A stretch of 64,000 bases of DNA, from contig CAXXVO010000007.1 in assembly GCA_963422645.2 (NCBI GenBank), positions 576,001 to 640,000 of the forward strand. Direction: 5' to 3'. This stretch comes from Alphaproteobacteria bacterium (GTDB lineage Bacteria; Pseudomonadota; Alphaproteobacteria; UBA828). The notes under the pieces were generated by a model. The model worked only from the letters and a program-made list of their open reading frames with translations, did not search any database and was not told where the DNA came from. Position numbers and translations under genes: made by a program. Numbering within the stretch: position 1 is the first letter of the stretch; each line of letters opens with the position of its first letter. This document shows positions 3,121 through 27,059 of this stretch, in pieces.

Positions 3121-3481
3121 CGGTCGCAGTCCGCAAGAGGGGCATCGTGAGCTGTGAAACCCGGCGACCCCAGATGTCAACGCCGGATGAAGATTCGGCC
3201 AGAGGGCGGCGCAAAAGACTGCCACTCTGGGTGATGCGTCGTTGTGACGGTTTTTCGGCGGGCGCGGTCCGTGGAGCCATCCAGAGCTCAAGCGGTCCGC
3301 GCGCGCCGGCCGACCGGAGGGCGGCCTACTGGTTTCGGTTTGTCGAGGTTCAACTTTGCGCCGTCAACGGACACGCCTGATGGCGGGATGACGGTGAGTG
3401 CCCGAGCACCGTCACGGCAGGTGGCGGGGGCTGGGGCTGGGCGCCTTGGCCGATCGGTGTCGGTCGTCGGCGTGCCGGGGT

Positions 3482-4246: not shown

Positions 4247-4322
4247 GCCGCGTCCTCCGACAGCAGGCACATGTAGCTGGCCGCCGAGGTCCTGCCGACG
4301 GTAGCCTTCGGCAGATAGGGGT
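4243..4322 (-). pseudogene. istA: IstA C-terminal fragment (continuation of 25634-27059)
   Basis: Reads ...PYLPKATVGRTSAASYMCLLSEDAA* and joins ...LDLDVYP across the ATAGGGGT duplication; its stop overlaps the istB ATG. Confidence 0.85.
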
Positions 4323-4457
4323 GTAATGCTTCTGTTCTCAGGTGATGGATGGTGATTTCACCGATTGAGTGTCCGCTTCCAGTCTCGTCGGAGAGGCCGC
4401 AGCCAGATGTCCCTCCTGGGCTCGGCCCGCTTCATGTGCGTGTCGTAGCGCCCGCGC
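4323..4457. repeat. left 135-bp terminal inverted repeat
   Basis: Reverse complement of 25499-25633 with 2 mismatches by eye. Confidence 0.93.
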
Positions 4458-4502
4458 AAAAGCCTCTGGTAACGCCGCCGGTGATTCGATATCGTCTCGC
4501 CC

Positions 4503-6941
4503 ATGGCGATGCGAGACGAGGATTTCGGGACGGCGCTGACACCGACCGAGGGGGACGAGGCGATCTGGTCGCCCCCCATGTCGGCGCCGGCGAGCGAGCC
4601 GCGCGACTGGCAATCTCTGTGCGAACAGGCGCAGGCGCGGGCGGAAGCAGCGGAAGCGCGTGCGGAAGAGTTGCGCTGGGCGGAAGTCGCCGCCCGCAGC
4701 GATGCGGGTGCGTGGAAGTCGCGGTTCAAGGCCTGCCGGCAGAGGCTGAGCGAGGCCGAGGAAGAGACCGGGGACCTCCGCCGCGCGGCCAAGGACGTGC
4801 CGGCCTTGCAGGCCGAAGTGGCGCACTTGCAGGAGTTGCTCTCCGAAGCCCGCAGCGTATCGAGCGAGTTCGGCACGATCGAAGCGCTGCGCGACGAGGT
4901 TGCTCAGTTGCAAGAGGCCCTGGCGTCGAAAGCCCGGAAGGACGCGACGGGGCCACTGTCGAGGGAGAATGCCCGGCTCCGCAAGACCCTGGAGCGGTCG
5001 CAGGGACAGAAGGACGAGGTCGCGGCGTTGCGCGGAGAGGTCTCGGCGCGGCGCAAGTCGGAGCGGGCCGCGCAGACGGCGCTGTCGAAGGAGAGCATCC
5101 GGCTGGGCAAGGCGCTGGAACGGACGCAGAAGCAGAAGGACACGGTCAAGGCGCTGCGCGAGGAAGTCGATTCCCTGACCCGGGAGACCCGTCGGCAGAA
5201 CCGGGAGAACGGCCGGCTGCGCCGCGAGCTGGAGTGGTTGCAGGGCATCAGGGCGACGGCACGTGGGTTGTCCGACGAGGTCGAGCTGCTGCGCGCGGAA
5301 CTGGCGGAATACCACGACCAGACGAACTTCATCGATTGGCAGGACAGGCGCATCGTCGACTTGCAAATTGCCCTGGATACGTCGGCCTTCAAGACCGAGC
5401 GGCTGGAGGCCGAGCTTGCCGAACGTCCCCTGCTGCCTGCGGCCTTGAAGAGATTGCGCCAGCAGGAGAAGACCATCGAGTCCCTGCGGGCCCGGATCGA
5501 GACGCTGGAAGAGGAGCTGGCCAAGCTGCGCTCGAGCCGGGCCGTCCTGTCGAAGGCGCTCCACGGCAGGAAGAGCGAGCAGCAGCAGAAGCCCGGTACG
5601 GGGCGCAAGCGCGGCCAGCAACGCGGCGCGCCCGGCCACGGCCGCACCCCGCGGCCCAAGCTCCAGGAGAAGAAGGAACGGCGCAACCCGCCGAAGGATG
5701 CGCGCATCTGTTCCTGTTGCGGCAAGCCCTATGTCGCCAACGGCGAACGCTCCACGAGCCTGATCGAGATCGAGGTCAAGGCCCACATCCGCAGGATCGT
5801 GCGGCCGCGCTACCGCCGGGGCTGCGAGTGTGCGTCCTCGCCCCTGGAAGCGATTGCGCCGCCGGTGCCGCGGCTGTTCCCCGGAACGCTCTTCGGAACC
5901 AGCTTCTGGGCACGGTTCCTGTTCGAACACTGTGGGTGTCTGCGCCCGCTGTGCCGGGTCGCCGCGTGGTACGGGGACCAGGGGCTGCCGGTCTCGCCGG
6001 GTACGCTGGCCAACAGCCTGAAGCGCTTCGTGCCGCTGTTCGACCCGCTCTACGAGGCGATCCTCGCGCACCAGAACACCGCGGCGTTGCGCCATGCCGA
6101 CGAGACCGGCTGGCGGGTACAGGAGTTCCGCGACACCGGCCGTTCGAGCCGCGCCTGGCTGTGGGTCTCGGTCAGCAAGGATTCGGTCTACTACATCATC
6201 GACCCCTCGCGCAGCGCCGAGGTCGCAAGGACCCTGTTCCGCGACACCGCCTGTATCGTCTTCCTGGTCTGCGACCGCTACAGCGCATACAAAACGCTGG
6301 CGCGCGAACTCGCCGGCAAGGTGATCCTGTGCTGGTGCTGGGCACATCAGCGACGCGACTTCGTCGACTGCGCGACCGGGCAGGAGGCGCTGACCGAATG
6401 GTGCCAGGAATGGGTCGAGCGGATCGCGCTCGTCTACCACCTGAACGACGAACGGCTGAAGCATTACGACCCCGCTCTCGAACGCCAGACACGGGCCTTC
6501 GACGCGGCGCAGCGCAAGCTCGGAAGGGCGGTCAAGCGCCTGTTCGCGGACGCCGAGGCGGAACTGGCCGGCCTGCCGGACAAGGACCGTCGGGCAAAGC
6601 CCTTGCGCTCGCTGCTCAACCACCGCGAAGGGTTGTGCGTCTTCGTCGACAATCCCCAGGTTCCGATGGACAACAACGCCGGGGAGCGGGCGATCCGCGG
6701 GCCGGCCATCGGGCGCCGATTGAGCTTCGGTTCCAACAGCGAGGACGGCGCGAAGTTCACCGCGACCATGTACTCCGTCATCGGCACGCTCTCGATGAAC
6801 GGCATCGACGTGCCGCGCTGGCTGGAGGCATGGTTGAAGGCCTGCGCGGAGAATGGCGGCAAACCGCCCGACGACCTGTCCCCATGGCTGCCGTGGACGA
6901 TGAGCGAGGCGCGCAGGCGCAAGTTCACGGCGCAGGAATGA
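4503..6941 (+). CDS. IS66 family transposase with long repetitive coiled-coil N-terminus (812 aa)
   Basis: HADETGW, CDRYSAY, CWAHQRRDF and MDNNAGERAIR motifs; N-terminal repeats LSRENARLRKTLERSQGQKD / LSKESIRLGKALERTQKQKD. Confidence 0.93.
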   Translation: MAMRDEDFGTALTPTEGDEAIWSPPMSAPASEPRDWQSLCEQAQARAEAAEARAEELRWAEVAARSDAGAWKSRFKACRQRLSEAEEETGDLRRAAKDVPALQAEVAHLQELLSEARSVSSEFGTIEALRDEVAQLQEALASKARKDATGPLSRENARLRKTLERSQGQKDEVAALRGEVSARRKSERAAQTALSKESIRLGKALERTQKQKDTVKALREEVDSLTRETRRQNRENGRLRRELEWLQGIRATARGLSDEVELLRAELAEYHDQTNFIDWQDRRIVDLQIALDTSAFKTERLEAELAERPLLPAALKRLRQQEKTIESLRARIETLEEELAKLRSSRAVLSKALHGRKSEQQQKPGTGRKRGQQRGAPGHGRTPRPKLQEKKERRNPPKDARICSCCGKPYVANGERSTSLIEIEVKAHIRRIVRPRYRRGCECASSPLEAIAPPVPRLFPGTLFGTSFWARFLFEHCGCLRPLCRVAAWYGDQGLPVSPGTLANSLKRFVPLFDPLYEAILAHQNTAALRHADETGWRVQEFRDTGRSSRAWLWVSVSKDSVYYIIDPSRSAEVARTLFRDTACIVFLVCDRYSAYKTLARELAGKVILCWCWAHQRRDFVDCATGQEALTEWCQEWVERIALVYHLNDERLKHYDPALERQTRAFDAAQRKLGRAVKRLFADAEAELAGLPDKDRRAKPLRSLLNHREGLCVFVDNPQVPMDNNAGERAIRGPAIGRRLSFGSNSEDGAKFTATMYSVIGTLSMNGIDVPRWLEAWLKACAENGGKPPDDLSPWLPWTMSEARRRKFTAQE

Positions 6942-10441: not shown

Positions 10442-10548
10442 TGTTGTTAAGCGTGGAAAAGTGACCCCCTATTGGGGGTGATCGGCGTCCAAAATTGACC
10501 CCCTTGGATTTGTGTCCATGAACACACCTCGTCGTTTGGACGGACGGG

Positions 10549-12075
10549 GTGGTGGGGGAGATGCTGGTTGTGGAAACGATCGCGAAGATCCGTCGGGATC
10601 ATCTGGTGAAGGGCGTTCCGATCAAGAAGCTCGCCCGGGATTTGAGGGTTTCCAAGAACACGATACGCAAGGTGGTGCGGGGCGATGCGACCTCGCACAG
10701 CTACGAGCGCAAGATCCAGCCGATGCCGAAGCTTGGGCTGTGGGTGGAGGAGCTTGAGCGCCAGCTGAAGGCCAACGAGAAGAAGGCACGCAAGGATCGG
10801 CTGTCTCTTCTGCGGATTCATGAAGACCTTGTGTCGCTGGGCTACAAGGGCGGCTATGACGCGGTTCGCCGCTATGCCAGGGCCTGGCGGCGCCGGTGGC
10901 GGCTGTTGTCGCCGGCGCAGGCCTATGTGCCGCTGATCTTCGATCCCGGCGAGGCCTACCAGTTCGACTGGAGCCACGAGTACGCGCGTCTGTCGGGCGC
11001 GACGACCAGGGTGAAGGCGGCGCACATGCGGCTGTGCCACAGCCGGATGTATCTGGTCCAGATCTTTCCCCGCGAGAGCCAGGAGATGGTCTTCGAGGCG
11101 CACGAGCGTGCCTTCCGCTTCTTCGGCGGGGTCTGCCGGCGGGGCATCTACGACAACATGAAGACGGCGGTGAGCACGATCTTCGTGGGCAAGAAGCGGG
11201 ACTACAACCGCCGCTTCCAGGAGCTGTGCTCGCACCATCTGGTGGAGCCTGTGGCGTGCACGCCAGGGGCTGGCTGGGAGAAGGGGCAGGTCGAGAAGCA
11301 GGTGGGTGACCTTCGCGGCCGCCTGTTCGTGCCCATCCCGCGGGGCCGCTCCTACGCCGAGATCAACGAGTGGCTGATGGATCGGTGCATCGAGGACGCC
11401 AAGAAGCATCCGCATCCGACAATCCCGGGCAAGACGGTGTGGCAGGTGTTCGAGGAGGAGCAGCCCTTCCTGATGGCGTATCGCGGCCCCTTCGACGGCT
11501 TCCATGCCAGCGAGGTGTCGGTCTCGAAGACCTGTCTGGTGCGCTTCGACAACAACCAGTACAGCGTCGCGGCCCGCGCCGTCGGCCGGCCGGTGGACGT
11601 GCGGGCCTATGCCGATCGGATCGTCATCCGCCAGGACGGCGAGACCGTTGCCGAGCACCCCCGCAGCTTCGGGCGCGGCCGGTTCGTCTACGATCCGTGG
11701 CATTACGTGCCGATCCTGACGCGGAAGCCCGGCGCGCTACGCAATGGCGCGCCCTTCAAGGACTGGCAGTTGCCCAACGCGCTCGGCCGCCTGCGAACCC
11801 GGCTCGCGGGCCACGACGACGGCGACCGGCAGTTCGTCAAGGTGCTCGCGGCGGTGCTGGAGGACGGACTGGAGGCGGTTGAGGCGGCCTGTGCCGAGAC
11901 GCTCGACTGCGGTGCCTGCAGCGCCGACGTGGTGCTCAACATCCTCGCCCGGCAGCGCCAGCCGGCACCGCCGGCAATCATCCCGACGCCCGAGGGCCTG
12001 CAGCTTCGCCACAAGCCGGTAGCCGACTGTCAGCGCTACGACAGCCTGAGGGAGGCCGGTCATGGAGCGTCATGA
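10549..12075 (+). CDS. istA: IS21 transposase IstA
   Basis: [14 protein letters not shown] and WEKGQVE DDE motifs. Confidence 0.95.
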
Positions 12076-12790
12076 TGTGCTGGAGATGATGACCCAGCTG
12101 AAGCTCGCAGGTATGCGCGCCGCTTACGACGACATCCTTGCCGACGGGCTCAAGCGCCGCCATCCGGTGCAACAGATCATCGGTACGCTGCTGCAGGTCG
12201 AGATCGCCGACAAGAGGGCCCGCTCGATCAAGTACCAGATGGCCTCCGCCAAGCTGCCGACGGTCAAGGAGCTGGCCGACTTCGACTTCGCCGCCTCGCC
12301 GGTCAACGAGCCCCTGATCCAGGAGCTCGCCGGCGGCGGCTTCCTCGAGGGCAAACGCAACATCGTGCTGGTCGGCGGCACCGGTACCGGCAAGACCCAT
12401 CTCGCCGTCGCCATCGCGCGGTCCTGCATCCGCAAGGGCGCGCGCGGCCGGTGCTACAACGTCGTCGACCTGGTCAACCTCCTCGAGGCCGAGCTTCGCG
12501 CCGGACGCCAGGGCCGCACTGCAGACCAGCTCGTCCGCCGCGACTTCGTCATCCTCGACGAGCTCGGCTACCTGCCCTTCGCCCAGGCCGGTGGGCAGCT
12601 GCTCTTCCATCTGATGAGCCGGCTCTACGAGCGCACCTCGATCGTCATCACCACAAACCTCGCCTTCGGCGAATGGCCATCCGTCTTCGGCGACCCCAAG
12701 ATGACCACAGCGCTGCTCGATCGCCTCACCCATCATTGCGAGATCATCGAGACCGGCAACGAGAGCTGGCGCTTCAAGAACCGCTCCTGA
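12062..12790 (+). CDS. istB: IS21 helper ATPase IstB
   Basis: [24 protein letters not shown]. Confidence 0.95.
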
Positions 12791-12960
12791 CCCGCCGCCG
12801 GCCTCCCTTGTGAGCGCGCGCGGTCTTTCAGCGGGGATCGGGGCCTGATCCGCTCGGATTTGTTGAGGTTTTGGGGCGGGTGCCCCTCGGCGAACTTGCA
12901 AGAAGTTCGCCGGGGGGCTTTGTCTCGTGGTGACGGTCACAATCGCCAGAGACGGCCCCA

Positions 12961-13578
12961 ATGTCGCACAACATTTTCCGCCACTCCATGCTTTGCAACG
13001 CCCTGGTCTGGGCCTGGCTGCGCGAGGTCGATGAGGCCGAGGCGGCGCGCTGCCGCGAGGCGGGCTGCCGACACTGCCCCGGCAAGCTGCACAGCGCGAC
13101 GTATCCGCGCAAGCCGTACGGTCTGGCAGCCGAGTTGAGGGAAGAGGGCACGCGGCGGTTCAGCTTCTGCTGCGCGGATTGCCGCCTGCGAGCGACCCCA
13201 CCATCGGTACGATTCTTCGGGCGCCGCTTTTATCTGGGCGCCCTGTTCGTTCTGTTGAGTGCACTGGTTCTGAGAGGCGGGGTGCGGTTGCAGACGATCA
13301 AGCGGAAGTGGGGGGTCTCGGTCGCCACACTGCGCCGCTGGCGGAAGTGGTGGCTGGAGGCGTTCCCGGCGACGGAGCCCTGGGGAGCGAAGCGTGGCGA
13401 ACTGGTGATGCCACCCGAGGAGGTGCCGCTGCTCTTCGTGCTGCGGCAGATGCGGGGCGGACGCTTCGGTGAGCGTCTGTTCCTGAGCCTGATCTGGTTC
13501 AAGCCGTGGACGGGCTATTGCGGGCTCGGCGATGGCTCGGCGCCGCCCGCAGAAAGTGTTCCTGTCACGCCCGGATAG
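12961..13578 (+). CDS. Cys-rich (zinc finger) + HTH hypothetical protein
   Basis: CRHC and CCADC pairs; VSVATLRRWRKWW HTH-like segment; first gene of the element. Confidence 0.65.
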   Translation: MSHNIFRHSMLCNALVWAWLREVDEAEAARCREAGCRHCPGKLHSATYPRKPYGLAAELREEGTRRFSFCCADCRLRATPPSVRFFGRRFYLGALFVLLSALVLRGGVRLQTIKRKWGVSVATLRRWRKWWLEAFPATEPWGAKRGELVMPPEEVPLLFVLRQMRGGRFGERLFLSLIWFKPWTGYCGLGDGSAPPAESVPVTPG

Positions 13579-13627
13579 GGCGTTCTACATGGGCATCTCT
13601 CCGATGCGGCGAGGGAGGGATGCCGGA

Positions 13628-15104
13628 ATGGACAAGGACGACGCGGGCGCCAGGCGCGAGAAGTGGGCCCGGCTGCGCTTTGCGGTGGTGGGGCCGCTTC
13701 TGGCTTCACCGCCGCCTGCAGGCCAGCTGGGGGCCGAGTTCGAGCGTCTGTCGCAGCGCGACTGGGAGCACCCGTCGGGCAAGGGGCCGGTGCGCTTTGC
13801 GGCCTCGACGATCGAGCGCTGGTACTACCGGGCGCGGGCAGAGGAGCAGGACCCGGTCAAGGCGCTGCGCCGGAAGCCTCGGACCGACGTCGGCCGCGAG
13901 CGGTCCATGTCGGCGGGGCTGATCGCGGCGCTGCGCGAGCAGTACCGGGTCCATCCCTCGTGGGCGGCGCAGCTCCACTACGAGACCCTCAAGGCTCATG
14001 TTGCGACCCATCCCGAGCTCGGCCCGATGCCGTCCTACGCGACGCTGAGCGCGGGCGATGCGCAATCGCGGCCTGGTGCGCGAGCGCCCCAGGAAGTGGC
14101 ACGAGGGTGAGGACAAGCCGGCGGTCGAAGCCCGCGAGGTCCTTAGCTACGAGGTGTCTCGCAGTCACGCGCTGTGGCACGGGGACTTCCACCACGGCAA
14201 GCGCCGCGTGCTGACGGCGTCGGGCGAATGGCAGACGCCCATCCTGCTCGGCTTCCTCGACGACCACTCCAGGCTTGGCTGCCACCTGCAGTGGTACCTG
14301 GAGGAGACCGCCGAGGTCTTCGTCCACGGGCTCTGTCAGGCCTTCATGAAGAGGGACTTGCCCAGGTCCCTGCTGACCGACAACGGCGGGCCGATGACGG
14401 CGGGCGAGGTCGAGGAGGGCTTGCACCGCCTCGGCATCGTGGGGGCCACGACACTCGCTTACAGCCCCCATCAAAATGGAAAAATCGAGTCGTTCTGGGG
14501 CACGGTCGAGGGCCGCCTGATGGCTCAGCTCGAAGGCGTCGACGCGCTCACCCTGAAGATGCTCAACGACGCCACCATAGCCTGGCTGGAGCAGGACTAC
14601 CATCGGCGGGTGCACCGCGAGCTCGGCATGACGCCGCATGAACGCCTCGCCGGGAGCGTCAAGGCATCGAGGCCCTGCCCCGCCTCGGACGAGCTCAAGG
14701 CGGCCTTCCGCATCGCCAGGAAGCGCACGCTCAGGCGCTCGGACGGCACCGTCTCGGTCGAGGGCATCCGCTACCAGGTGCCACAGCCGTGGCGCCACCT
14801 GAGGACGCTCTGGGTCCGCTATGCGCGCTGGGACCTCAGCGGCGTCGATCTGGTGGAAGGCCGAAGCGGCGAGCGGCTGTGCACGCTGTACCCCCTCGAC
14901 AAGCGCGGCAACGCCGATGGCGTCCGCCGTCCTGCGAGACCCGGCAGCGACCATGGCGGCGCCAGCGCGGGCGTCGGCGAACTTCCGCCGCTGCTCAAGG
15001 GCGTGCTCGACGCCCAGGCCGCAACAGGCCTGCCGCCGGCCTGGGTACCCCATAACAAGACGCCCGGTCCGGGCGAGGACGACGATCAGGGAGATCCGTC
15101 ATGA
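13628..15104 (+). pseudogene. rve/Mu-like DDE transposase, +1 frameshift near 14050
   Basis: N-terminal HTH (STIERWYY), then LWHGDFH, LTDNG and NGKIESFW catalytic motifs and a Mu-type C-terminal DGTVSVEGIRYQVP; the two ORFs overlap at 14047-14058. Confidence 0.85.
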
Positions 15105-15888
15105 ACCGCGAGCTGCTCACCTTCTACGGGCTCAAATGGAACCCCTTCGCCACCGACCTTCCGGTCGACAGCCTCATGGTGAGCCCCGCCGTCGACAGCT
15201 TCTGCCTCAGAATCGAGCATCATCTTGTGCGCCAGGGCGGCTTCGCGTTGATCGCCGGCGAGCCCGGCACCGGAAAGAGCGTGGCGTTGCGCGTGCTCGC
15301 CGACCGCCTCGGCCGCTCGGACGGGCTCAGGGTCTGTGCCATCACCCACCCCTCTTCCAGGCTGTCCGACTTCTACCGCGAGATCGGCGGGATGTTCGGC
15401 GTCGACCTGATGTACAACAACCGCTGGGCCAGCTTCAAAAACCTGCGCGAGCGATGGCTCACCCATGTCGACGACACCCGCATGCGGCCCGTGGTGCTCA
15501 TCGACGAGGCCCAGGAGCTGCTGCCCTCGGTGATCTCCGAGATCCGCCTGCTGGCGTCCACCGACTTCGACTCGCGCGCCATCCTCTCGGTCGTCTTCGC
15601 CGGCGACAGCCGCCTGATCGACAGGCTCCGCCAGCCCGACTTGCAGCCCATCGCCTCGCGCCTGCGCCAGCGCCTGGTCATGACCCAGGCAGACGCCGGC
15701 GACCTCGCGGCCCTGCTCGACCATCTGGTCGAGCAGGCCGGCAATCCGGGCCTCATGAGCGCAGAGCTCAAGGACACCCTGGTCACCCACGCCGGCGGCA
15801 ACCCCAGGGCGCTTACCGTCATGGGCGACATGCTGCTCGCCGCCGGCGCCGAGAAGAACCGCGAGGTTCTCGACGAGAAGCTCTTCAT

Positions 15889-18047
15889 CCCAGGTTGGCA
15901 CTTTTTGTGTTCTGCTGTCGTTTATCGCTTTGATATGGCGCAATATTTTTCTCTGCCGATTCCAACATGGCACTACATTTTGTGAGATTCTGTCAGCTCG
16001 TCAGGCGGGTCCTCGTGCGGTGGATGGCGGGGTCAACACCCGCCGCCGAGGAGATTTGGGCGACCTCGGCGGCCGGGCGCGTGTCCTGGCGGTTGACGAT
16101 CAAGGTGCCGTCGGTCTGGCGCAGTCGCGTGGTGATCCGCACCCAGGTCCGCATGCCCTCGCGGATCGATGCCCAGCACTTGTGGATGCCCCGCGCGGCC
16201 AGTCGGGTACGGATCAGATGCACGGCGTGATAGGCCAGCACGGCGATCAGCAGGTGGGCCGCGATGCGACGGTCGAGCTGGTGCCAGATCGGGCGAAGGC
16301 CGAGCTCGGATTTCAGGCTGCGGAAGGTGGCCTCGATGTCGGTGATGCGCCAGTAGGTCCGCAGGATCGTCTCGATATCCCAGTCGACGTGGCTGGTGCG
16401 CAGCACATAGGCGCCGGCGCCCTCGTCGGCCTCGTCGTATTGCGGCCTGCGCTTGAAGCGCACGGCGGCGGCGTTGGGGCCGGTTTTCGCCTTCTCGACC
16501 GTGACCTCGTAGTGTCTGGCGACGGTGGAGAAGCGCTGCTTGAGACGGCCAATGCTCTCCAGCACCCTGTCGTAGCGCTTGAGGCGGCCCTTGACCGGCA
16601 GGCCGCTATGGAGCCTTTCCAGCGCCGCCTCGAAGCGGTTCCGCCTGAGGCCGATGATCGCGTTCTCGGCCTTCTTCTTGCCCTCGCTGACGACGTAGAG
16701 CCGCGCCTCGCCGTCCTCGCTGGCAAGCCGCCAGGCGCGCACCTCGTGCCGCGCGCTGGTGATCAGCAGAGCCTCGGGCCCGCCCTCGGGCAGCGGCGGC
16801 CTGGCGCCGCGGCTGACCGCGATCCAGTCGTAGCCCTGCTCGCCCAGCCACGCGACGTTCTCCTCGGTGGCGATGCCCGCGTCCATGACCACCGTGGGCT
16901 TCGGCGCCGTGCCGCCGCACACCGCCTCGAGCCTGACCAGCGCGTCCTCCAGCGTGCCCGGCTCGCTCACGTTGCCCGGCAGGATCTCGCAACTGCGCGG
17001 GAAGCCTGCGCCGTCGAGCGCCAGCGCCAGCGTGATCAGCGGACAGTCGTCGCGCTTCTGCTTGGAGCGCCCGAACCTGGGAAGCTGGCCGTGGGTGTGG
17101 CCGTGGTAGTGGACATTGGTGAGATCGTAAAAGGCGATCGTTTCGGGCAGGTCGAGCAGCGCGCGCTCGCGGTTGAACAGCTCCCGCTGAATGGCGGCCC
17201 GGTGGCGCCAGAGCAGGTCGCCGATGCGGTAGAGCGTCTTGCGCCGCAGCGCCTTGCGGTCGCCCTCCAGCCCCAGGAGCTCGGCGGTCGCGCTGTCGCG
17301 GCGCAGCCAGCGGCTGGTGTCACGCTCGCTGGCGGGATGGACCATCCTGGCGACGATCAGCGCGCTGGCGATGCGCCCGTCGCGGCCCTTGATATCGAGG
17401 CCGTGGAGGATGTCGGCGAAGCCGAGGTCGTCGAGGGCCTTGAGGCACAGGCGCTCGCAGCCGACCGTGCGCGGGTTCTCGTGCTCCAGGGTATCGAGGT
17501 CGACGGTGGCGATGTCGGGCTTGCGCGCCTCTTCCTGTATCGCCTCGGGGCGGAACCCCCTGGCCCTGAGCTTGGCGACGATGTCCTCGGCTGCGGCCTG
17601 CACGTCCGGCGCGGCTTCGAGCAGCGGCGGGCGGCCGTTGAGCAGCGCCTCGGCGAGTCCGGCAACTTCGCGCCATTTCTCCTTCGGCACCGGATAGTCG
17701 GTGCCGAGGTTGAGAAGCGTGCGCTGCCTGACCTTGTCGCCGATGCGCTGCGAGAGCACGAGGCGATGGCTGCGGACCGGCTTGCCTTCGGTAGTGTGGG
17801 TCTTGGTTGCCCTGATGAACATGTCGCCCGGCACGTTTTGGTCGTGGCGGGTTCAGATATGTCGGCTTTGGTGGTGGGGTCAAGGGAAATCCTGCAAACC
17901 CACCATTCCCTGGCACTACAAAGGGAGTTCGAGACGGCAATCGCAAATGTAGGGGCGTGCCCTTCTCGTCAACGCTATATCTGGTGTGTCAGCCGGAAAA
18001 ACCTGGCCAATTCGGCCCCGAACAAACGGAAAAAGTGCCAACTTGGG
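15889..18047 (-). mobile_element. IS1634 family insertion sequence
   Basis: IR CCCA(G/A)GTTGGCACTTTTT; TSD TCAT at 15885-15888 and 18048-18051. Confidence 0.9.
15993..17822 (-). CDS. IS1634 family transposase
   Basis: FYDLTN, GRSKQKRDD, VVMDAG, IEATFRSLKSELGLRPIWHQ. Confidence 0.92.
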   Translation of the reverse strand: MFIRATKTHTTEGKPVRSHRLVLSQRIGDKVRQRTLLNLGTDYPVPKEKWREVAGLAEALLNGRPPLLEAAPDVQAAAEDIVAKLRARGFRPEAIQEEARKPDIATVDLDTLEHENPRTVGCERLCLKALDDLGFADILHGLDIKGRDGRIASALIVARMVHPASERDTSRWLRRDSATAELLGLEGDRKALRRKTLYRIGDLLWRHRAAIQRELFNRERALLDLPETIAFYDLTNVHYHGHTHGQLPRFGRSKQKRDDCPLITLALALDGAGFPRSCEILPGNVSEPGTLEDALVRLEAVCGGTAPKPTVVMDAGIATEENVAWLGEQGYDWIAVSRGARPPLPEGGPEALLITSARHEVRAWRLASEDGEARLYVVSEGKKKAENAIIGLRRNRFEAALERLHSGLPVKGRLKRYDRVLESIGRLKQRFSTVARHYEVTVEKAKTGPNAAAVRFKRRPQYDEADEGAGAYVLRTSHVDWDIETILRTYWRITDIEATFRSLKSELGLRPIWHQLDRRIAAHLLIAVLAYHAVHLIRTRLAARGIHKCWASIREGMRTWVRITTRLRQTDGTLIVNRQDTRPAAEVAQISSAAGVDPAIHRTRTRLTS

Positions 18048-18093
18048 TCATGGAGATCCTGGGCGAGCCCGCCAAGCCGAAGAGGGCACGGCG

Positions 18094-19092
18094 GTGAAGG
18101 GCTTCCCGACACGGGCGCCGATGCAGCTCGAGGATCGCCCCCGGGCGCAACAGTGGATGGTGGACACGCTGTGGGCCGAGCAGGCCGTGGGCATCGTCGG
18201 CGGCGAGCCCAAGTGCGGCAAATCCCTGCTCGCGCTCGATCTCGCCGTCGCCGTGGCCACCGGCGTCCCATGCCTGCGCCACTACCGCCCCAGCGCAAGC
18301 GGCACCGTGCTGCTCTTCGCCGCCGAGGACGCCGGCCACAGGGTGCGCAAGCGTCTGCAGGGGATCGCCCGCGCCGCCGCCACCCCCTTCGACGAACTCG
18401 ACATCGCCGTCATCGACGTGCCCACCCTGCGTCTCGACCAGCGCATCGACCGTCAGCGCCTGCAGGAGACCGTGGAGCGCATCGAACCGCGCCTCCTGAT
18501 CCTCGATCCCCTGGTCCGCCTGCACAGCGTCGACGAGAACGCCGTCGCAGAGATCGCCCCCATCCTCGGCTTCCTGCGCGAACTGCAGCGCCGCTTCGAA
18601 ACCGCCGTCCTCCTCGTCCACCACGCCCGCAAGAGCGGCGGCACCCGGCCGGGGCAGGCCCTGCGCGGGAGCAGCGAGCTGCACGCTTGGGGTGACTCAA
18701 ATCTGTACCTGCGCCGGCGCGACAAGAAGATCGTCATGACGGTCGAGCAGCGCGACGCCCGGGGCCTCAACGACATCGAGCTGGAACTCGTCGACGGCGG
18801 ACATGGGCCGGCCTTCCGTCTGCACCAGGACGCGGCAGATGAAGACAGGCACGAGCCCGCCACCGTCGAGCAGCGCGTCTTCAAGGCGATCGAGCAGGCC
18901 GAAAAGCCGCTCTCGAAAGCCCAGATCCGCTCACGCGCCGCTGCCCGCAACGCCACCGTCGTTGCCGCCATCGAGAGCCTCACCAGGGAGGGGCGCATCG
19001 AACGGGCGCCCAGGGGTGGCTATCGCCTCGCAGCCGCCGAGGCGCACCGGGAGCCGCAATCCCCTGCCGCCATCAACGGAAGTGCGGGATGA
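18094..19092 (+). CDS. AAA_25/RepA-like RecA-fold helicase with C-terminal winged helix
   Basis: GTG start overlapping the ExeA stop (GTGA); GGEPKCGKS, LLILDPL, LLVHHARK, LRGSS. Confidence 0.85.
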   Translation: MKGFPTRAPMQLEDRPRAQQWMVDTLWAEQAVGIVGGEPKCGKSLLALDLAVAVATGVPCLRHYRPSASGTVLLFAAEDAGHRVRKRLQGIARAAATPFDELDIAVIDVPTLRLDQRIDRQRLQETVERIEPRLLILDPLVRLHSVDENAVAEIAPILGFLRELQRRFETAVLLVHHARKSGGTRPGQALRGSSELHAWGDSNLYLRRRDKKIVMTVEQRDARGLNDIELELVDGGHGPAFRLHQDAADEDRHEPATVEQRVFKAIEQAEKPLSKAQIRSRAAARNATVVAAIESLTREGRIERAPRGGYRLAAAEAHREPQSPAAINGSAG

Positions 19093-19094
19093 GG

Positions 19095-19151
19095 CGTTCC
19101 CGTTCCCGTTCCCGGAACTCTTAAGCGTTGAAGGGTACAGGAACGGGAACG
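19095..19151. repeat. CGTTCC direct repeats with inverted GGAACG copies (possible origin)
   Basis: CGTTCCCGTTCCCGTTCCCGG...GGAACGGGAACG flanking a more AT-rich spacer between the helicase and primase genes. Confidence 0.6.
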
Positions 19152-19194
19152 CCGTCAGCCTCCCTTCCAAGCAGACCTTCGCCGGGACCCGGCA

Positions 19195-20064
19195 ATGAGC
19201 GGCGGCGATCCCCTGGCCACCTGCCGCAACATCCCCCTCGACCGGGTCGCCGCCGCCCTCGGCTACCGCAGAGACCCGACCGACCGGGCGCGCTTCAAGC
19301 GCGGGGGCTCGGTCATCAGCATCAACGGCGAGAAGTTCTTCGATCACCTGCGCGGCACGGGAGGGGGTGGCGCCATCGACCTCGTCATCCATGCGACGGG
19401 ATGCCGCTTCCCGGAAGCCCTCCGCTTCCTCGGAAGCCATGAGGGGCGGAGGGAGATCACCACCATCCCAGCCGCCCCGCGACGCCTGCGGCTGCCAAGG
19501 CCCAGTCCCCGCGCCTGGCCCAGGGTCCGGGACGCCCTCATCCGCCAACGCGCTATCGGCACCGACGTGCTCGAAGCCTGCCACGGCCGAGGCCTCCTCT
19601 ACGCCGATGACAGGATCAACGCCGTCTTCATCTGCCGAAACGCCAGCGGGCACACGACCGGCGCCGAGATCCTCGGCACCGCGCCGCAGCCCGGAACAAA
19701 ACGCTTCAGGGGCATGGCCCCGGGATCGCGCAAGGCGCGTGGCGGCTTCTGGCTCCACTGCGACCGAAACCAGCCCGCCCTCGTCATCCTCACCGAGAGC
19801 GCCGTCGACGCCATCTCTGCACGAAGCCTGCGCGTCGAGGGGACGCGCGAGAACGGCGCCGTCGTCGCCTCAACCGCCGGCATCGCCAGCTCGGTCCCGC
19901 CCTGGATCAAGGAGTGGAAGCCACGTCGCATCGTCTGTGCCTACGACGCAGACAGCGCCGGCGACACTGCCGCCGAGCATCTCGTGCTCAACGATCCAAG
20001 GGTGAAAAGGTTGCGCCCACGACACGCCAAGGACTGGAACGAGATGCTCCTGCGGTCTCGATGA
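19195..20064 (+). CDS. TOPRIM-domain primase-like protein (DUF3991-like)
   Basis: GGGAIDLV N-terminal motif, LTESAVDAIS, CAYDAD, KDWNE. Confidence 0.85.
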   Translation: MSGGDPLATCRNIPLDRVAAALGYRRDPTDRARFKRGGSVISINGEKFFDHLRGTGGGGAIDLVIHATGCRFPEALRFLGSHEGRREITTIPAAPRRLRLPRPSPRAWPRVRDALIRQRAIGTDVLEACHGRGLLYADDRINAVFICRNASGHTTGAEILGTAPQPGTKRFRGMAPGSRKARGGFWLHCDRNQPALVILTESAVDAISARSLRVEGTRENGAVVASTAGIASSVPPWIKEWKPRRIVCAYDADSAGDTAAEHLVLNDPRVKRLRPRHAKDWNEMLLRSR

Positions 20065-20352
20065 AAGCCAGGCCACTCACCGCTCTCGCAGATCAACCAA
20101 GCGCCGCATCACGAACATCAAATAATCCGAAAACCGCACCATCAAATGCTGGGCGCACGCTCACCTTGCGGCCCGGTTGCCCCGGTGGGCCAACAGGGAC
20201 CCCCCACGCGGCTTCGCTCCGCGTAGCGCAGGGCGCCACACGAAGCCGCGCGGGTCCCCCCTATTGGCTACCGGGACAACCTCCGCCGTGCCACTCAGGG
20301 GGGTCAATTTTGCACGCCGATCGGGGGTCAGTATTGAAAGCCGATTGACACC

Positions 20353-21003
20353 ATGGACGCCCCCGTCAACGCCGCCATGCGCCTCGATGCCCCCGACTTC
20401 CGCATCGCCGCCGTCCTGCCCCGGGTCGACACCCGCCAGCTCCTCGCCATGCGATCCTTCCTCACCGACAGGATGAAGGACGTCTCCGCCGCCCTCGCAG
20501 ACCGCGTCAACACCCAGATCGGCCTCGCCATGACCGGCTCGGTCCCCGTCGGCGAGACCACCGGCCGCGTCGCCGCCATCCTCAAGACCGGCGGCAGGTC
20601 CCGCGCCCTGACAATCGTGCGGACCGAGCTCGGCCGCGCATACTCCATGGCCGGACAGCAGCGCATGGAGCAGGCCGCCGGGATCCTGCCGGGGCTGAGG
20701 AAGCAGTGGCGACGCTCCGGAAAGCTCAGAAGCCGCATCGCCCACGACGCCGTCGACGGACAGACCAGGGAAGCCGCCAGGCCCTTCGACGTCGGCGGCG
20801 CCACGCTCATGTACCCCCGCGATCCCGCCGGACCCGCCGCCGAGACGATCAACTGCGGATGCCAGTCGCTGCCATGGATGGAAAGCTGGGAGGTCGAGAA
20901 CCCCGGGCGAAAGCCGTTCTCCGACGAGGAGATCGCACGCGACCCGCGGCGCGCCGATCTCGAAGGGAAGGAGGCCGGCGCGGGGACAACGCCGGCATCG
21001 TAG
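20353..21003 (+). pseudogene. phage minor head/head morphogenesis protein (Mu gpF / SPP1 gp7-like), 5' truncated
   Basis: IVRTE, KQW, R..H...DGQ, PF, YPRDP and INCGC motifs; begins at the IS21 end. Confidence 0.85.
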
Positions 21004-21727: not shown

Positions 21728-23908
21728 TCACCCCCCATCACCGTTGAGCCCGCGCAGCAGCGGCAGTTCGTCCTCGACCGGCAAACGCACATACAGTCCG
21801 CGCGTCTTGCCGCGGGTCACATGGCAGCTGTCCAGCCTGCCCGCCTTGATCCGTTCCCAGACCGTCTGCCGCGTGACACCCAGACGATCCATTGCCACAG
21901 CGAGGGGAACAAACCCCTCCGGAGGCGCCTCACGAAAGCGCTCGCGCAAGGTCGGGGTCATCCGGATCCGAAGAGGAGCACCTTCGATATCGGGCTGGGC
22001 AACCGGAACCAGCCCCTCGCGGATCCAGCGATAGATGGTGTCATCCGAGACTCCGATCTCCTTCGCCACATCGGCAACGCCCATGAGCACCGGCTCGTCC
22101 CCGTCGGGCTGGTAGGGCGCAATGCCATGGCGGCGACGCAGGCTGCCAACAAGCTCGGCCGTGAAATCCAGACCCCGTGCTGTGCGCCGTCCCTGGCGGG
22201 TGAGAACCTTCGCGGTCTCCCGGTCGTTGTAAAAGCATGACAGCTTGCGCACGAGCTCGACCGTGCTGCGCTCATCGCGCCGGGGTGTCGGAGAGCCCGC
22301 GAGCATCGGCAAAGTGATCTCGTCGATCTGCCCGCCACGCCAGCGCAATGTTGCCATGATCTCACGCTCCTGTCGCGCAAGCTCGATCGTCACCTCGTCG
22401 AGGAGGCAGGCGAGCAGGCGCTTGCGCTCGCGCATGGTCGTCGACGACGCCCCCCAGACCTGCGACAGGCGCGCGCCGAGACCCTCGAAAACCGCCGGGG
22501 CAGGGGCCGCGGGCTGACGCGCCCGTGCCGCCTCAAGCGCTTCCTGTGCAGCCTTCTCGGCGCGAAGCGCCTTCTCCCACTCGCGCTCCAGCGTTGCCGC
22601 AATCAGACGGTTGTCGGGATCGACCTGCTTTTAGCGCCGCTCGGCAAGCCGCGCCTCGTACCGGCAGTGCTCAAGATCCAGCTCCCAACGGCGCAACGCG
22701 CGCAGGCCGCGTTCAGCAACATCACAAGCCGCCTGCCGGGCCGCCTCCACCCCCGCCGGCGTGACCGCATCGAGAAACAGACGGGCAACTTCCGCATCAA
22801 CGCGCTTGCCGCCTGTCGACCAACAACCGCCGCGCCGGCGCGCAGCATCGCGCTTGCGGCACTCATACCCCCAGCCCGTCTTGCTGTAGTAGACGGTCAT
22901 CGGCAATCCGCAGCCGCCGCAGACCGCGAGACCCTGGAGCAGAGCCGACCCTTCCCGCGCCGCGCCGCGGGCTCCGTCCGGAGCCATGTGGTTGCGGGCC
23001 AGCTGCTCCTGTACTTCAAGCCATTCTGCCCAACTGACATATCCCTCATGCTTCTCCGGCTGAAGAATATCCCAGCGCTCCTGGACCGGCCGCAGCGGCG
23101 CACCGTGACCAACGCCGCGTTTGAAGCCGTAGGCATAGGCGCCGCCCATCGCCGGGTTGGTGAGGATGCGGTACACCCGTTCATAGCGCGCCGGGCCCCA
23201 TTCCAATGCTGCCCCCGGGTGCCGGCGAGAGGGAACATCCTCGCCCGCCTCACGCAGCAGCATCGTCGCCTGGCGGGCCGAACCGGCTTGCCGAAAACGC
23301 GCAAAGACCGTTGCAATCGCCGCCTGAACCCGGGCATCCGGATCCTTCCGCAAAGTCGAGCCATCCCGCACAAATCCGATCGGAACGCGCGAGTACAACT
23401 CGCCACGAAGCGCCTTGTTCCGCTTTCCGCCCTCCATCCGGGCGCGAATAAGAGACAGCTCAGCGGCGCTCACGGTTCCCTTGATCCCCAGGACAAGGGA
23501 GTCGTCGTCCCGGCTCGGGCAGTAGATGTGGCAGTCCTCAACCAGAACCGTGTCGTGCCTGCGACATAGATCGAGAAGCTGAAACCATTCCATCGTGTTC
23601 CTGGCGAGCCGCGAAACCTCAATCCCGAAGATGCCCCCGACATGGTCCCGGGCGATCAGGTCGCACATCTCCCGAAAGCCGCCACGCTCGCCGCGCGCCT
23701 TCTCGCTTGCGCTCTCGCCAAGATCGGCGTCGATCGTCCGTATCCGCTCGGCCGGCCAGCCAATCTCCCGGGCACGCTCGCCAAGCGCGTATTGGCGCAG
23801 CTGCGATTCCTGGTGCGCGTTCACTTGCAAGGGTGTCGACTGGCGAACGTAGACAACTGCAAGACGCTCAAGATGACGCTGGGTGATCTTCGACGGATCG
23901 ACCGTCAT
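21728..23908 (-). pseudogene. large serine recombinase with one in-frame nonsense codon (TAA at 22631-22633)
   Basis: VYVRQST, EVSRLARN, LLQGLAVCGGCG; reads AERR*KQVDPDNRL where Tyr is expected; C-terminal HTH repeats. Confidence 0.9.
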
Positions 23909-24059
23909 CGGCCGCCTCCCGATCCGCAATCCGAACCATCAGATCGGCCAGACCCTGCACGACGCGATCCCGGTCCGGAGCCGGAAACGCCAGCCACCGG
24001 TCCCGGCGCTCCTCCCACTCCATCAGCGCGATCAGCGCCAACTCCTGCTCCGCATCCAT
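23868..24059 (-). CDS. small accessory protein overlapping the LSR start
   Basis: MDAEQELALI...LADLMVRIA; overlapping small-ORF arrangement, also seen in the second LSR element. Confidence 0.45.
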   Translation of the reverse strand: MDAEQELALIALMEWEERRDRWLAFPAPDRDRVVQGLADLMVRIADREAADDGRSVEDHPASS

Positions 24060-24123: not shown

Positions 24124-25174
24124 ACCGCTTATGCACATGGCTCCGGTTCGATCAACATGCTGTAGGTAAGGGGTTTTGCATTGGTGGCGATGCGGAAGAG
24201 CGAGCGGAAAGCAGCGTGGCGGGTTTTGCGGCGGTTGAAGCGAAAGGCGAACTCATCGAGATAGGCCTGCAGATGCTTGCGGCGCAGCCCGTGGTAGACG
24301 CCTCGCGCCCATCCTTTGAGGTTGGAGAAGACTTGGTGGATCCACGGCAGGACGAGGTGAGCGGCGGTCTTCCCGACGACATGGACATTGTGGCGATCGG
24401 CGGGGACCGCAGCGTAGCCGGACCAGCCGTCGGTTTTCGCGATGGCGTCGGGATCGGCGGCGGTTTCGACGAAGTGTCCGAGGTCGGCGGCGCCGTAGGA
24501 GGAGATTTCGGCCAGCCGCAGGCGGCCCGGGATGGTTCCATCCCCCAGTTCGATGGCGCCGACGATGAGCATCTTGCCGTCGTGGCTGCGTCCTTGCCCT
24601 CCGGTGGGAGGATCGTCTTTGGTCCGGAATGGAAGGCTGGCCTCGTCGATTTCCACCAGGCCCGACAACGGGTTGCGCTCGGGGTCGACCATGCTGGCGC
24701 GCAGCTTGTGGGCGAGCAGCCAAGCGCTGCGGTAAGAGCCGATACCGAGCTGTTTCTGGAGCTGCAGGGCAGAGATGCCGTTGGAGTGGGTCGCCATCAG
24801 GTAGGCGGCCCAGAACCAGACGGTGAGCGGCAGCTTGCTGGCGTGCAGGATCGTCCCGGCCGTCACCGAGGTCTGCCGGCGGCAGCCGGCGCACTCGAAG
24901 GTGTGTGCTTTTCTGCGCAGCGCCCATCCCTTTTCATGGCCGCACGCGGGACAGACGAAGCCGTCCGGCCAGCGCATTTCGATCAGCCAGGCGGCGCAGG
25001 CGTCATCGTCCGGGAACATGTGCTGGAAGGCGAGGAGGCTGTCGGCGACCTGTTTCATGTGGTGGCTCCGTCGGCAGGAACGTATAGGCAACATTCTACC
25101 CGTTCTCCCGCCCTAACCTCAACCTCAACATCTGGTGGCAAACTCTCGCGACCGGAGCCATGTGCATAAGCGGT
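24124..25174 (-). mobile_element. IS1595 family insertion sequence
   Basis: IR ACCGCTTATGCACATGGCTCCGGT; 8-bp TSD TCAGACAA (24116-24123, 25175-25182). Confidence 0.93.
24129..25058 (-). CDS. IS1595 family transposase
   Basis: Zn ribbon CPACG/CAGC, VEIDE, KTDGWSGY, YLDEFAFRFNRR. Confidence 0.95.
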   Translation of the reverse strand: MKQVADSLLAFQHMFPDDDACAAWLIEMRWPDGFVCPACGHEKGWALRRKAHTFECAGCRRQTSVTAGTILHASKLPLTVWFWAAYLMATHSNGISALQLQKQLGIGSYRSAWLLAHKLRASMVDPERNPLSGLVEIDEASLPFRTKDDPPTGGQGRSHDGKMLIVGAIELGDGTIPGRLRLAEISSYGAADLGHFVETAADPDAIAKTDGWSGYAAVPADRHNVHVVGKTAAHLVLPWIHQVFSNLKGWARGVYHGLRRKHLQAYLDEFAFRFNRRKTRHAAFRSLFRIATNAKPLTYSMLIEPEPCA

Positions 25175-25598: not shown

Positions 25599-25633
25599 AA
25601 TCACCATCCATCACCTGAGAACGGAAGCATTAC
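25499..25633. repeat. right 135-bp terminal inverted repeat
   Basis: Inverted copy of 4323-4457; includes the last ~33 codons of the DUF4338 gene. Confidence 0.93.
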
Positions 25634-27059
25634 ATAGGGGTAGACATCGAGGTCGAGCTTCGGCGGGCGCTTCTCGAGGCGGCACAGCACCAGGTGCTTG
25701 ACCGCGTCGAAGCCTATGGCGCCCAGGCGCAGGGCATCCTTCACTGCGGCGTGGAGATCCTCCAGCCCGAAGCTCTCCAGCAGCCGCAGGACCTGCACGT
25801 ACTCCCGCCGCCCCGCCTTGAGCGCGCGTGCCTCCATCAGGCGGCGCAGGGTCTGGAAGGCGGGCGGCAGGTCCCATCCGGCGAGCGGCGCTGCCTGGTC
25901 CAGGGCGCCGATCTTCTGCTCGATCAGGGGCAGATAGTGGATCGGCTCGAAGATCATGTCCTCACGCTCATAGGACCGGGGATGGCGGGCGATGACGTCT
26001 CCGCCACAGCCGATCACCACTCGATCGACGTAACCGCGTACCCAGACGTCACGATGGCCATAGGCCACCGGCACCGAGTAGTCGTTGGTCCGATAGCGAA
26101 CCAGAGACTGCGAGCTGACCTGGCCGGGAGCCTGGTCACAGGCCTCGAAGGGCGTAGCCGGCGGCGCGGCCATGGCCGCCACATCCCGCGCCAGGCGCTC
26201 TCCGATGGTCTCGCGGTGTCCGCGCAGGATATCGCCCTGGCGGCTGTGGCATTGCTCCTCGAGCCGCAGGTTGAACTCTTCCCAGCTCGCAAACCGTGGC
26301 AGCGGCACCATGAAGTTGCGCCGGGCGAAGCCCACCAGACCCTCGACCGCGCCCTTGTCGTTCCCCTTGCCCGGACGCCCGTAACGATCATGCACGAGGT
26401 AGTGCGACAGGAACCCGTTGAAGAGCCCCGCCCGCTTGCGCGTCCCGTCCGCCAGGATGCGCGACACCAGGCAGCGGTCGTTGTCGTAGAGAACCCGATC
26501 GGGGAACCCCGCCGAAGAAGGCGAAGGCATGCACATGCCCGTCCATCCACGCCTCGGCCGTCGCCGCAGGGTAGGCCCGCACGTAGCAGGCGTCGCTGTG
26601 CGGAAGATCGAACACGAAGAAGTGCGCCTTGCGCGCGATACCCCCGATCACCGCCCGCGCCTCGCCGAAGTCCGCCTGCCCATGCCCCGGCGGATGGATC
26701 AGCGGCACGAACATCTCTCGCCGCCGGCGCCGATGCTCGCGCACATGATCCTTCACAATCGTGTAGCCGCCGCTGAACCCGTGCTCGGCCCGAAGACGGT
26801 CGAAAATGCGCTTCGCCGTGTGCCGCTGCTTGGGCAGCTGCTCCAGATCGTCCCGCAGCCACCCGTCGATGATCTCGATGAACCCGTCCAGCTTCGGACG
26901 CCGAAGCGGCGCCGTCCGCCGATAGCCCGGCGGCGCCGAAAACTGCAGCATCTTCTTCACGCTCTCGCGTGAAATCCCGAAGTGACGCGCCGCAGCCCGC
27001 TCACTCATCCCGTCCCGGCAGGCGAGACGGACCTTCCGATAAAGTTCCACGGTATGCAT
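25634..27059 (-). pseudogene. istA: IS21 transposase IstA (frameshift at ~26495 and insertion at 25633)
   Basis: GQADFG, LYDND and NDKGAVE motifs; extra base in the GGVPRS-VLYDN segment. Confidence 0.9.

Follow-up and report, generated by a model that had tools for sequence, protein, structure and literature searches.

The element described here occupies positions 12811-20163 of a 64,000-nucleotide stretch of an alphaproteobacterial genome (contig CAXXVO010000007.1, hereafter the window), and all coordinates below are window positions unless a copy or a locus is named. Within this span lie five co-oriented genes, the open reading frames (ORFs) ORF1 to ORF5. The element is an active, recently mobile transposon, and the copy in the window is dead. 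We consider it probable that this Tn6049-type transposon has, beside its DDE transposase and AAA+ ATPase, an initiator-helicase/iteron/priming module through which its own DNA is copied in association with transposition. From gene content, conserved DNA and protein models we infer that the ORF4 protein acts as a helicase and binds the iterons, that the module provides an origin, and in what form the DNA is replicated.

The termini are TGAGCG...CGCTCA, that is, TG...CA. A 5-bp target-site duplication (TSD), CCTTG, flanks the window copy at 12806-12810 on the left and 20164-20168 on the right. For the empty-site test, 100 bp of left flank (one CCTTG included) were joined to the 100 bp past the second CCTTG, and the product was searched in the element's own genome. 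The reconstructed site matched over 200/200 positions at 100% identity in about 65 of 77 rows, all of them uninterrupted copies of an IS21-family element. Because the empty site matches uninterrupted IS21 copies in full, the boundaries and the 5-bp TSD are exact. An earlier note on this DNA had placed GTGAGCGYGCGC inverted repeats at non-TG ends with a 3-bp CTT duplication. Its ends were one base out: the G preceding the left end belongs to the flank, being present at 14 of 24 left ends genome-wide and lacking at the other 10, and the C after GCTCA at the right end also lies outside the element. The terminal inverted repeats (IRs) are short and imperfect (TGAGCGCGCGCG / TGAGCGTGCGCC). At the left end (12811..12870, + strand), TGAGCGCGCGCG is followed by subterminal repeats of the CGGATTTGTTGA type. 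The right end (20074..20163, + strand) has CATCAAAT repeats in subterminal position and terminates in ...GGGCGCACGCTCA.

The copies were located by their end motifs across the 23 contigs (5.9 Mb) of the genome that contains the window. The exact motifs gave 24 left and 26 right ends, and about 25 element repeats were present at 99.8-100% identity, a repetition beyond chance. Eight copies were uninterrupted (5189-5192 bp), four were interrupted by other insertions, and the rest were truncated. All five ORFs were full-length in seven of the eight uninterrupted copies. The intact element is 5189 bp long (reference copy G000:C19:156077-161265), which bears out the unit of about 5.2 kb without IS1634 that the earlier note had proposed. 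The window copy is doubly dead, through a transposase frameshift caused by an extra G (+1) at about 14049 and through truncation of the ATPase at its 3' end. An IS1634-family insertion of 2159 bp (15889..18047, − strand), which is not part of the element, takes the last 15 ATPase codons and parts the helicase from the operon. Its 4-bp TSD, TCAT, lies at 15885-15888 and 18048-18051. Its transposase gene (15993-17834, − strand) scored 256.6 bits against NF033559 (cut-off 100), so the IS1634 assignment of the earlier note was also right. The nesting is three deep, with IS1634 in the element and the element in an IS21-family element.

Two further observations concern the copies themselves. At G000:C6:430794-436755, one copy sits inverted inside another at element position ~3609; therefore any target immunity that guards against self-insertion is not absolute. 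Two helicase alleles coexist among the genome copies, distinguished by a cluster of six substitutions (L055 3966-3992, corresponding to element ~3466-3492 in ORF4). Their protein identities are 98.8% and 100%, and the second allele is the sole one in sequencing runs X2 and X5.

All five genes lie on the + strand and bear out the domain content given in the earlier note; the domains are Zn/helix-turn-helix (HTH), HTH_32 with rve, AAA_22, AAA_25, and DUF3991 with Toprim_2. In the intact 5189-bp copy, ORF1 spans 151-768, ORF2 722-2293 (523 aa), ORF3 2290-3123, ORF4 3120-4118 (GTG start) and ORF5 4221-5090. The overlapping start and stop codons noted earlier from transposase to helicase are 4-bp overlaps at both ORF2/ORF3 and ORF3/ORF4. 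ORF1 (12961..13578, 205 aa) has a zinc-ribbon-like N-terminus and an HTH. It is Cys-rich (CxxC...CCxxC) with a weak HTH_23 match, and C36, C39, H44, C70, C71 and C74 are invariant among 359 homologues. Its AlphaFold model had a mean predicted local distance difference test score (pLDDT) of 61.2. Foldseek recovered no PDB structure at E≤0.001, and the PDB sequence search gave no match. On its conserved cysteines, ORF1 is probably a family-specific accessory protein with a zinc-ribbon-like N-terminus. In the ESM Atlas, ORF1 falls with clusters that partly carry DUF6431, which serves as a lead only; a TniQ-like role is conceivable.

ORF2 (13628..15104, frameshifted in the window) is the DDE transposase, identified by its domain matches (HTH_32, rve and rve_3) and its catalytic triad. 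M33 is its likely true start, since homologues are 491 aa long. The triad D218/D283/E319 has the spacing D-65-D-36-E, which is IS481/IS3-like. The nearest NCBIfam model was IS481 (NF033577), but the score of 117.3 bits was far under the cut-off of 224. This score, together with four or five genes in place of a single ORF, sets the element outside the IS481 family as ISfinder and NCBIfam define it. In PHROG the match was a Mu-like transposase (phrog_310), and the domain search found no Mu-transpos_C in ORF2. ORF3 (15101..15888, with the remaining codons at 18052-18097) is an AAA_22 ATPase (6e-19) of the ExeA/GspA/MuB-like kind and matched phrog_296, a DNA transposition protein.

A tblastn search against plasmids detected transposases of 48-50% identity on Cupriavidus and Paraburkholderia plasmids. 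ORF1, ORF2 and ORF3 were colinear with the pMOL30 and pBPHYT01 copies at 39-41%, 48-50% and 50-51% identity; the pMOL30 copy, a Tn6049, showed 41/48/50% in the same order and a 6-bp TSD. The pMOL30 locus is annotated as a 181-aa 'transposase', an 'IS481 family transposase', an 'AAA family ATPase' and a 71-aa hypothetical protein. Tn6049 of Cupriavidus metallidurans CH34 is described as 3.5 kb long and present in 12 copies, each with an ATPase gene 'gspA' (PMC2864759). On the Pseudomonas aeruginosa plasmid pHS87a, its imperfect IRs are 12 bp long (TGTGCaTaAGCA) and its direct repeats 4 bp (PMC4739549). The accessible portions of the Tn6049 literature describe no mechanism, and further Tn6049 papers, in the same portions, merely record its presence. 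The present element shares with Tn6049 the order of the three-gene core (small Cys-rich/HTH protein, IS481-like DDE transposase, ExeA/GspA-like AAA+ ATPase), short imperfect IRs beginning TG, CCATCAA-type subterminal repeats, a short variable TSD and multicopy occurrence. Judged by this similarity and gene order, the transposition core belongs to a Tn6049-related superfamily of small DDE transposons. Unlike the 3.5-kb Tn6049, which has no helicase, iterons, hairpin or primase and whose fourth ORF encodes the 71-aa hypothetical protein, the present element is 5189 bp long and carries a 332-aa helicase and a 289-aa primase.

ORF4 (18094..19092, 332 aa) resembles the RepA helicase of RSF1010, with a RecA-fold domain and a C-terminal winged helix. 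It matched AAA_25 (3e-36) and, weakly, DnaB_C. The only PDB sequence match was the RSF1010 RepA helicase 1g8y (E 8e-9), and its PHROG matches were primase/helicase families. The Walker A motif GEPKCGKS lies at residues 37-44. The winged helix was placed at about residues 258-312 by weak GntR and AbiEi matches and by the AlphaFold model, in which the mean pLDDT was 61.5 and that of the winged helix near 88. Fold matches of the model were RecA-fold ATPases, including RadA, DnaB and Rad51. These matches point to ORF4 as a predicted RepA/RSF1010-like helicase, and its helicase activity would follow from that resemblance. In metagenomes, close homologues of ORF4 form more than 120 clusters at ≥66% identity; in a sample of 400 further genomes of the class, only one had a relative.

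The scan of species-representative genomes gave 28 loci, and in all 25 close genome loci the helicase lies inside the IRs. Most relatives are four-gene versions of 4384-4409 bp without the primase. The alphaproteobacterial metagenome-assembled genome (MAG) G773 contains 14 copies of the 4384-bp version on its main chromosome and 24 in the whole genome, and the MAG G774 contains four copies of the 4409-bp version. Both versions carry ORF1-ORF4, with the ends TGAGCGGGCGC...ACTCA and TGAGCAGGCGC...GCTCA, respectively, in which the left start of the present element is conserved. All 18 copies of these four-gene relatives from two genomes have a TSD (5 bp in 11, 4 bp in five, 6 bp in two). Five-gene versions with a primase were L033 (TSD CCGGT), L044 and four of 18 metagenome loci. 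The expectation in the earlier note that helicase and primase lie within the same IRs across homologues therefore stood for the helicase, found in every close relative, and failed for the primase, which is optional and absent from most of them.

Among 17 metagenome loci with a helicase of at least 65% identity, 15 have rve and AAA_22 genes directly upstream; at the other two, no upstream sequence was available. Five of the 15 (L062, L063, L064, L069, L070), here called lineage B, have a different transposition module. It consists of a 210-aa ORF that BLAST does not relate to ORF1, a transposase of 440-461 aa in which HTH_32, rve and Mu-transpos_C domains were recognised, and an AAA_22/TniB-like ATPase. 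The products corresponding to ORF2 and ORF3 are 26-29% identical to those of the element, and the helicase is 68-70% identical. The lineage-B ends are TGTTGTCTT...AAGACAACA, again TG...CA, with the helicase inside. More distant helicases (41-45% identity) in G283, G438, G538 and G601 also follow an rve-AAA_22 pair. Helicases of this kind also stand behind two or three further transposase/ATPase pairs that have diverged strongly. In the helicase tree, lineage B forms one clade (100/100) nested among lineage-A clades, and the primase-bearing elements stand in three separate places. It follows from this nesting and scatter that the module was exchanged between transposon lineages and that the primase slot turned over. 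The helicase is not chance cargo, because it is conserved in homologous elements, and by this comparison of genes we regard it as integral to the transposon.

Two groups of relatives were observed in addition. L046 (OZ253557.1, 7281-9931) is a decayed relative with ORF1, the first 98 transposase codons and a primase-like gene 47% identical to ORF5, which suggests a second type of primase in the family. L021, L027, L036, L044 and L045, with about 80% transposase identity, are near-identical members on short, high-coverage contigs binned to MAGs labelled Gemmatimonadota, Acidimicrobiales and Chloroflexota. Their presence in MAGs of other phyla could reflect mis-binning of repeats or real cross-phylum transfer.

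Directly after the helicase stop, at 19093..19157 (+ strand), the element has iteron-like repeats in which three GTTCCC units face GGAAC/GGGAAC units and form an imperfect palindrome. Three tandem repeats of 6-7 bp occupy this same position in all 22 readable elements and are often faced by an inverted set. The unit varies between elements, and all units within an array change together. In all 22, the unit pairs with the first residue of the predicted recognition helix, which in the present element is N286 in A-R-N-A-T-V. Ten elements with N at this position have GGGAAC, and seven with P (six) or T (one) have GGTAAC. GGAAAC is found in two elements with A, and GGAACC in the three with H, which belong to lineage B. 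On the helicase tree, residue and unit switch together in at least three comparisons of sister groups (the present element with L058/L060, L044 with L071, and L066/L072 with the GGGAAC clade). That whole arrays change in concert argues for a sequence-specific binder. Direct repeats alone, with no palindrome, were observed in L022, L033, L042, L058, L060, L071 and L072.

The slot after the repeats holds either a primase gene or a conserved hairpin. In the present element it contains ORF5 (19195..20064, 289 aa), a primase-like protein by its DUF3991 and Toprim_2 matches. In primase-less elements of both lineages, alignment A2 showed a conserved non-coding block after the repeats. The first part of this block is an almost invariant hairpin of 13 pairs (ATGGCCG-A-AAGC-loop-GCTT-A-CGGCCAT). 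RNAalifold gave one covarying pair only (A-U to G-U to G-C); therefore the hairpin is conserved in sequence rather than in pairing. It is present in 15 primase-less elements and absent from all six primase-bearing ones (the present element, L033, L044, L058/L059, L060 and L072). The source genome has no hairpin match, G773 has 24 and G774 has four; the 14 hairpins on the G773 main chromosome and the four of G774 coincide with the element copies in those records. An Rfam scan of four elements found no family for the block. By its mutually exclusive distribution with the primase gene, the hairpin is a candidate single-strand priming signal that may substitute for an own primase.

The second half of the block (about 66 nt, GGCGGGTCACCCGAAGGGCCG...GCTTGACGCGCCGACGGC, A2 columns ~220-290) holds a small hairpin with a compensatory swap from GCCGC/GCGGC to GCGGC/GCCGC. 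Direct repeats of GACGGC flank this half, which L027 and L021 lack and L022, L031, L061 and others keep, as if it were a separable insert or had been deleted between the repeats in L027 and L021. Between the iterons and the hairpin or primase, an extra small ribbon-helix-helix ORF was observed in L071 (4193-4663) and L044 (~2700-3060). The L071 ORF gave a borderline NikA-like match (27.1 bits, cut-off 27), and an ORF of this kind could encode a copy-control or mobilisation accessory protein.

The favoured mechanism would run as follows. The module would consist of an initiator-helicase (a RepA/RSF1010-like ATPase of the RecA fold that ends in a winged helix), cognate iterons of 6-7 bp directly behind its gene and a priming device, which would be an own Toprim primase, as here, or the conserved DNA hairpin. 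The transposase and ATPase would cut the ends and join them into a captured target. The helicase would dock on the iterons through its winged helix and load itself within the element, and synthesis would be primed by the primase, or by host primase at the hairpin. The element DNA might be copied as an excised circle, or else at the donor site or strand-transfer intermediate. The outcome would be a gain in copy number without loading through host replication restart. The element may accordingly be read, as in the earlier note, as a self-priming replicative transposon.

Several results weigh against this mechanism. Tn6049 reaches 12 copies per genome without a helicase (PMC2864759), and therefore the module is not needed for this type of transposition. 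The ORF4 model is of moderate quality at its mean pLDDT of 61.5, and Rad51/RadA were matched as well as DnaB. The winged-helix codons and the repeats are less than 150 bp apart, and their correlation could come from co-inheritance of one DNA segment and not from binding specificity. The repeats might serve autoregulation as an operator, and the palindrome of some elements might form a terminator-like hairpin. Neither an AT-rich unwinding region nor a DnaA box was identified in the element. Of the 12 complete copies in the own genome, three have a perfect 5-bp TSD, two have a 4-bp TSD and seven have none. When the left- and right-flank 5-mers of the TSD-less copies were cross-matched, three trans matches among 624 pairs were obtained, compared with two to three in controls, so that no excess was visible. 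The TSD-less copies may stem from recombination between copies or from intramolecular events. A regular-expression search of the own assembly found no right-end/left-end circle or tandem junction; head-to-head and tail-to-tail end junctions were likewise absent from it. Logan contigs of three sequencing runs, which break at repeats, showed no joints, and a Hi-C run of raw reads contributed no read.

These points bear most directly on an alternative in which ORF4 is an accessory or regulator of transposition. Its winged helix would bind the repeats as an operator or cis site controlling expression, target choice or immunity, and the host would copy the DNA. The position of the repeats directly after the stop codon and their palindromic form in many elements are operator-like. 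The equal rank of Rad51/RadA-type ATPases in the fold search, the multiplication of Tn6049 without a helicase gene, the missing AT-rich region and the missing circle junction all agree with such a role. However, the sole PDB sequence match of ORF4 is a plasmid replicative helicase, and its PHROG families are those of primases and helicases. The accompanying Toprim primase, or the hairpin in the same slot, is hard to explain by regulation, and the seven elements with direct repeats only argue against a simple terminator or palindromic operator. We therefore hold a purely regulatory ORF4 to be unlikely, although it is the strongest competitor of the replication module.

A second alternative takes the element for a replicative transposon of the classical Mu type. 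Its helicase and primase would act at the forked strand-transfer intermediate, in place of restart by PriA and the DnaB loader, and not at an internal origin, and the repeats would be regulatory only. As in Mu (MuA/MuB), Tn7, Tn5053, Tn552 and IS21, an rve-fold transposase with a DDE triad is followed by an adjacent AAA+ ATPase, the ends are TG...CA with several subterminal repeats, and the TSD is about 5 bp. The many near-identical copies imply a gain in copy number, and lineage-B transposases have a Mu-transpos_C domain. In contrast, the D-65-D-36-E core of ORF2 is IS481/IS3-like and differs in spacing from MuA, and its best family match is IS481. The IS481 and IS3 groups transpose by copy-out-paste-in rather than by Mu-type cointegration. 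ORF2 gave no Mu-transpos_C match, and the element has no TnsA, TniQ or resolvase, the last of which speaks against cointegration of the Mu type. The winged helix with its matching repeats suggests site-specific loading, and the TSD-less copies showed no reciprocal flank pattern above control. Mu, Tn7, Tn5053, Tn552 and IS21 use host helicase and primase, whereas the present family has its own helicase gene. Taken together, a Mu-type course appears rather improbable, and more so than regulation by ORF4.

The weakest alternatives explain the helicase and primase as chance cargo that a plasmid or a prophage remnant left behind, or take the element for a DDE-integrating phage satellite (a possibility raised in the earlier note). 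They are nearly excluded: helicase-primase pairs are typical of plasmids and satellites, and a Mu-F-like gene and other mobile-element debris occur in the window, but all close relatives keep the helicase within their IRs, it is conserved in several divergent lineages of transposons as well, neither ORF2 nor ORF4 has relatives in the viral contig collection, tblastn of ORF4 against 72,556 PLSDB plasmids gave no match at E≤1e-8, and the elements are merely 4.4-5.2 kb in size. The five ORFs contain no capsid, relaxase or conjugation gene, as the earlier note had stated, and no interference gene; the packaging, capsid-redirecting and integrase domains of phage satellites (P4-like, PICI, PLE) are also absent from them. 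Separately, a defence-system reading was dropped, as PADLOC returned only weak P-loop- or Toprim-level matches.

The predicted replication module is best compared with the IncQ (RSF1010) replicon, which has the RepA helicase, the RepB' primase, the RepC initiator, iterons of about 20 bp and the ssiA/ssiB hairpins. The order of helicase, short direct repeats and then hairpin or primase recalls the IncQ logic of iterons, ssiA/ssiB and primase. The element is nevertheless not an IncQ-type replicon: there is no RepC or RepB' gene among the five ORFs, DNA binding seems, from the model, to be built into the helicase by its winged helix, each repeat measures 6-7 bp and not about 20 bp, and the primase is of the Toprim/DUF3991 and not the RepB' type. 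Casposons are mobile elements that join an integration enzyme with replication proteins (PMC4046053, PMC4779613). IEE, a PrimPol-helicase that acts in trans, is reported to promote excision of IS3-family elements (10.1101/2023.06.07.543989). The present family resembles casposons, Polintons, P4-like satellites and tycheposons with their primase-helicases, and IEE in combining an integration enzyme with replication proteins. Casposons, Polintons, the satellites and tycheposons, unlike the present family, use Cas1, tyrosine recombinases or pPolB. The present family also differs from self-synthesizing elements in being a 4.4-5.2-kb DDE and AAA+ transposon with a RecA-fold helicase, cognate repeats and no polymerase.

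Full-text searches of the literature retrieved no account of a helicase in a Tn6049-like or Mu-like transposon (supplements, ISfinder and TnCentral lay outside the scope). The earlier note, which recognised no characterised family in the element, is therefore right for the helicase module and not for the three-gene core, which is homologous to the named Tn6049. The core is known by name, and the obligate, exchangeable helicase/iteron module with its alternative of primase or hairpin appears to be undescribed. A bolder reading extends the replication module to a widespread, undescribed class of 'transposable replicons'. These would be DDE transposons of 4.4-5.2 kb with their own origin (iterons, a co-evolved initiator-helicase, and a primase or a hairpin for host primase), the origin module would be swapped among unrelated Mu/IS481-like modules, and self-replication, in situ or as a circle, would be obligatory in transposition. 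This extension is plausible, although we would sooner doubt it than assert it. If it were true, the family would be the equivalent, among bacterial DDE elements, of self-synthesizing transposons and would directly connect transposons with small plasmids in evolution.

Bacterial DDE transposons are considered to need host replication or repair to complete transposition, and how that machinery is recruited is a long-standing question. Mu is completed through PriA-dependent restart, and a 2026 preprint reportedly takes up the recruitment of host replication for Tn3. A family that encodes a helicase of its own, together with repeats to match and a device for priming, would offer a natural experiment on this recruitment step, in a compact system (<5.2 kb) that is easy to dissect. 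One helicase/iteron module across transposase lineages that are 26-28% identical suggests a portable function. The pairing of one helix residue with one repeat base offers a directly testable specificity code. At ≥24 copies per genome in several alphaproteobacterial genomes, the family is also relevant to genome erosion and assembly.

The source genome is heavily loaded with IS elements. The IS21-family host element is present in about 65-70 copies in the 5.9 Mb, and copies of IS1634 also occur. In the window, its left part lies at 10442..12810 (+ strand; istA 10549-12075, istB 12062-12790), and its right part at 20169..20350 (+ strand), up to the terminal ...GATTGACA. Downstream, mobile-element debris was observed at 20353-21003, 22631-23929, 24129-25094 and 25601-26536. 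It comprises a Phage_Mu_F-like ORF, a large serine recombinase, an IS1595-family transposase and an ORF with a Mu-transpos_C_2 domain, the last being the remnant of a different, Mu/Tn552-like transposase.

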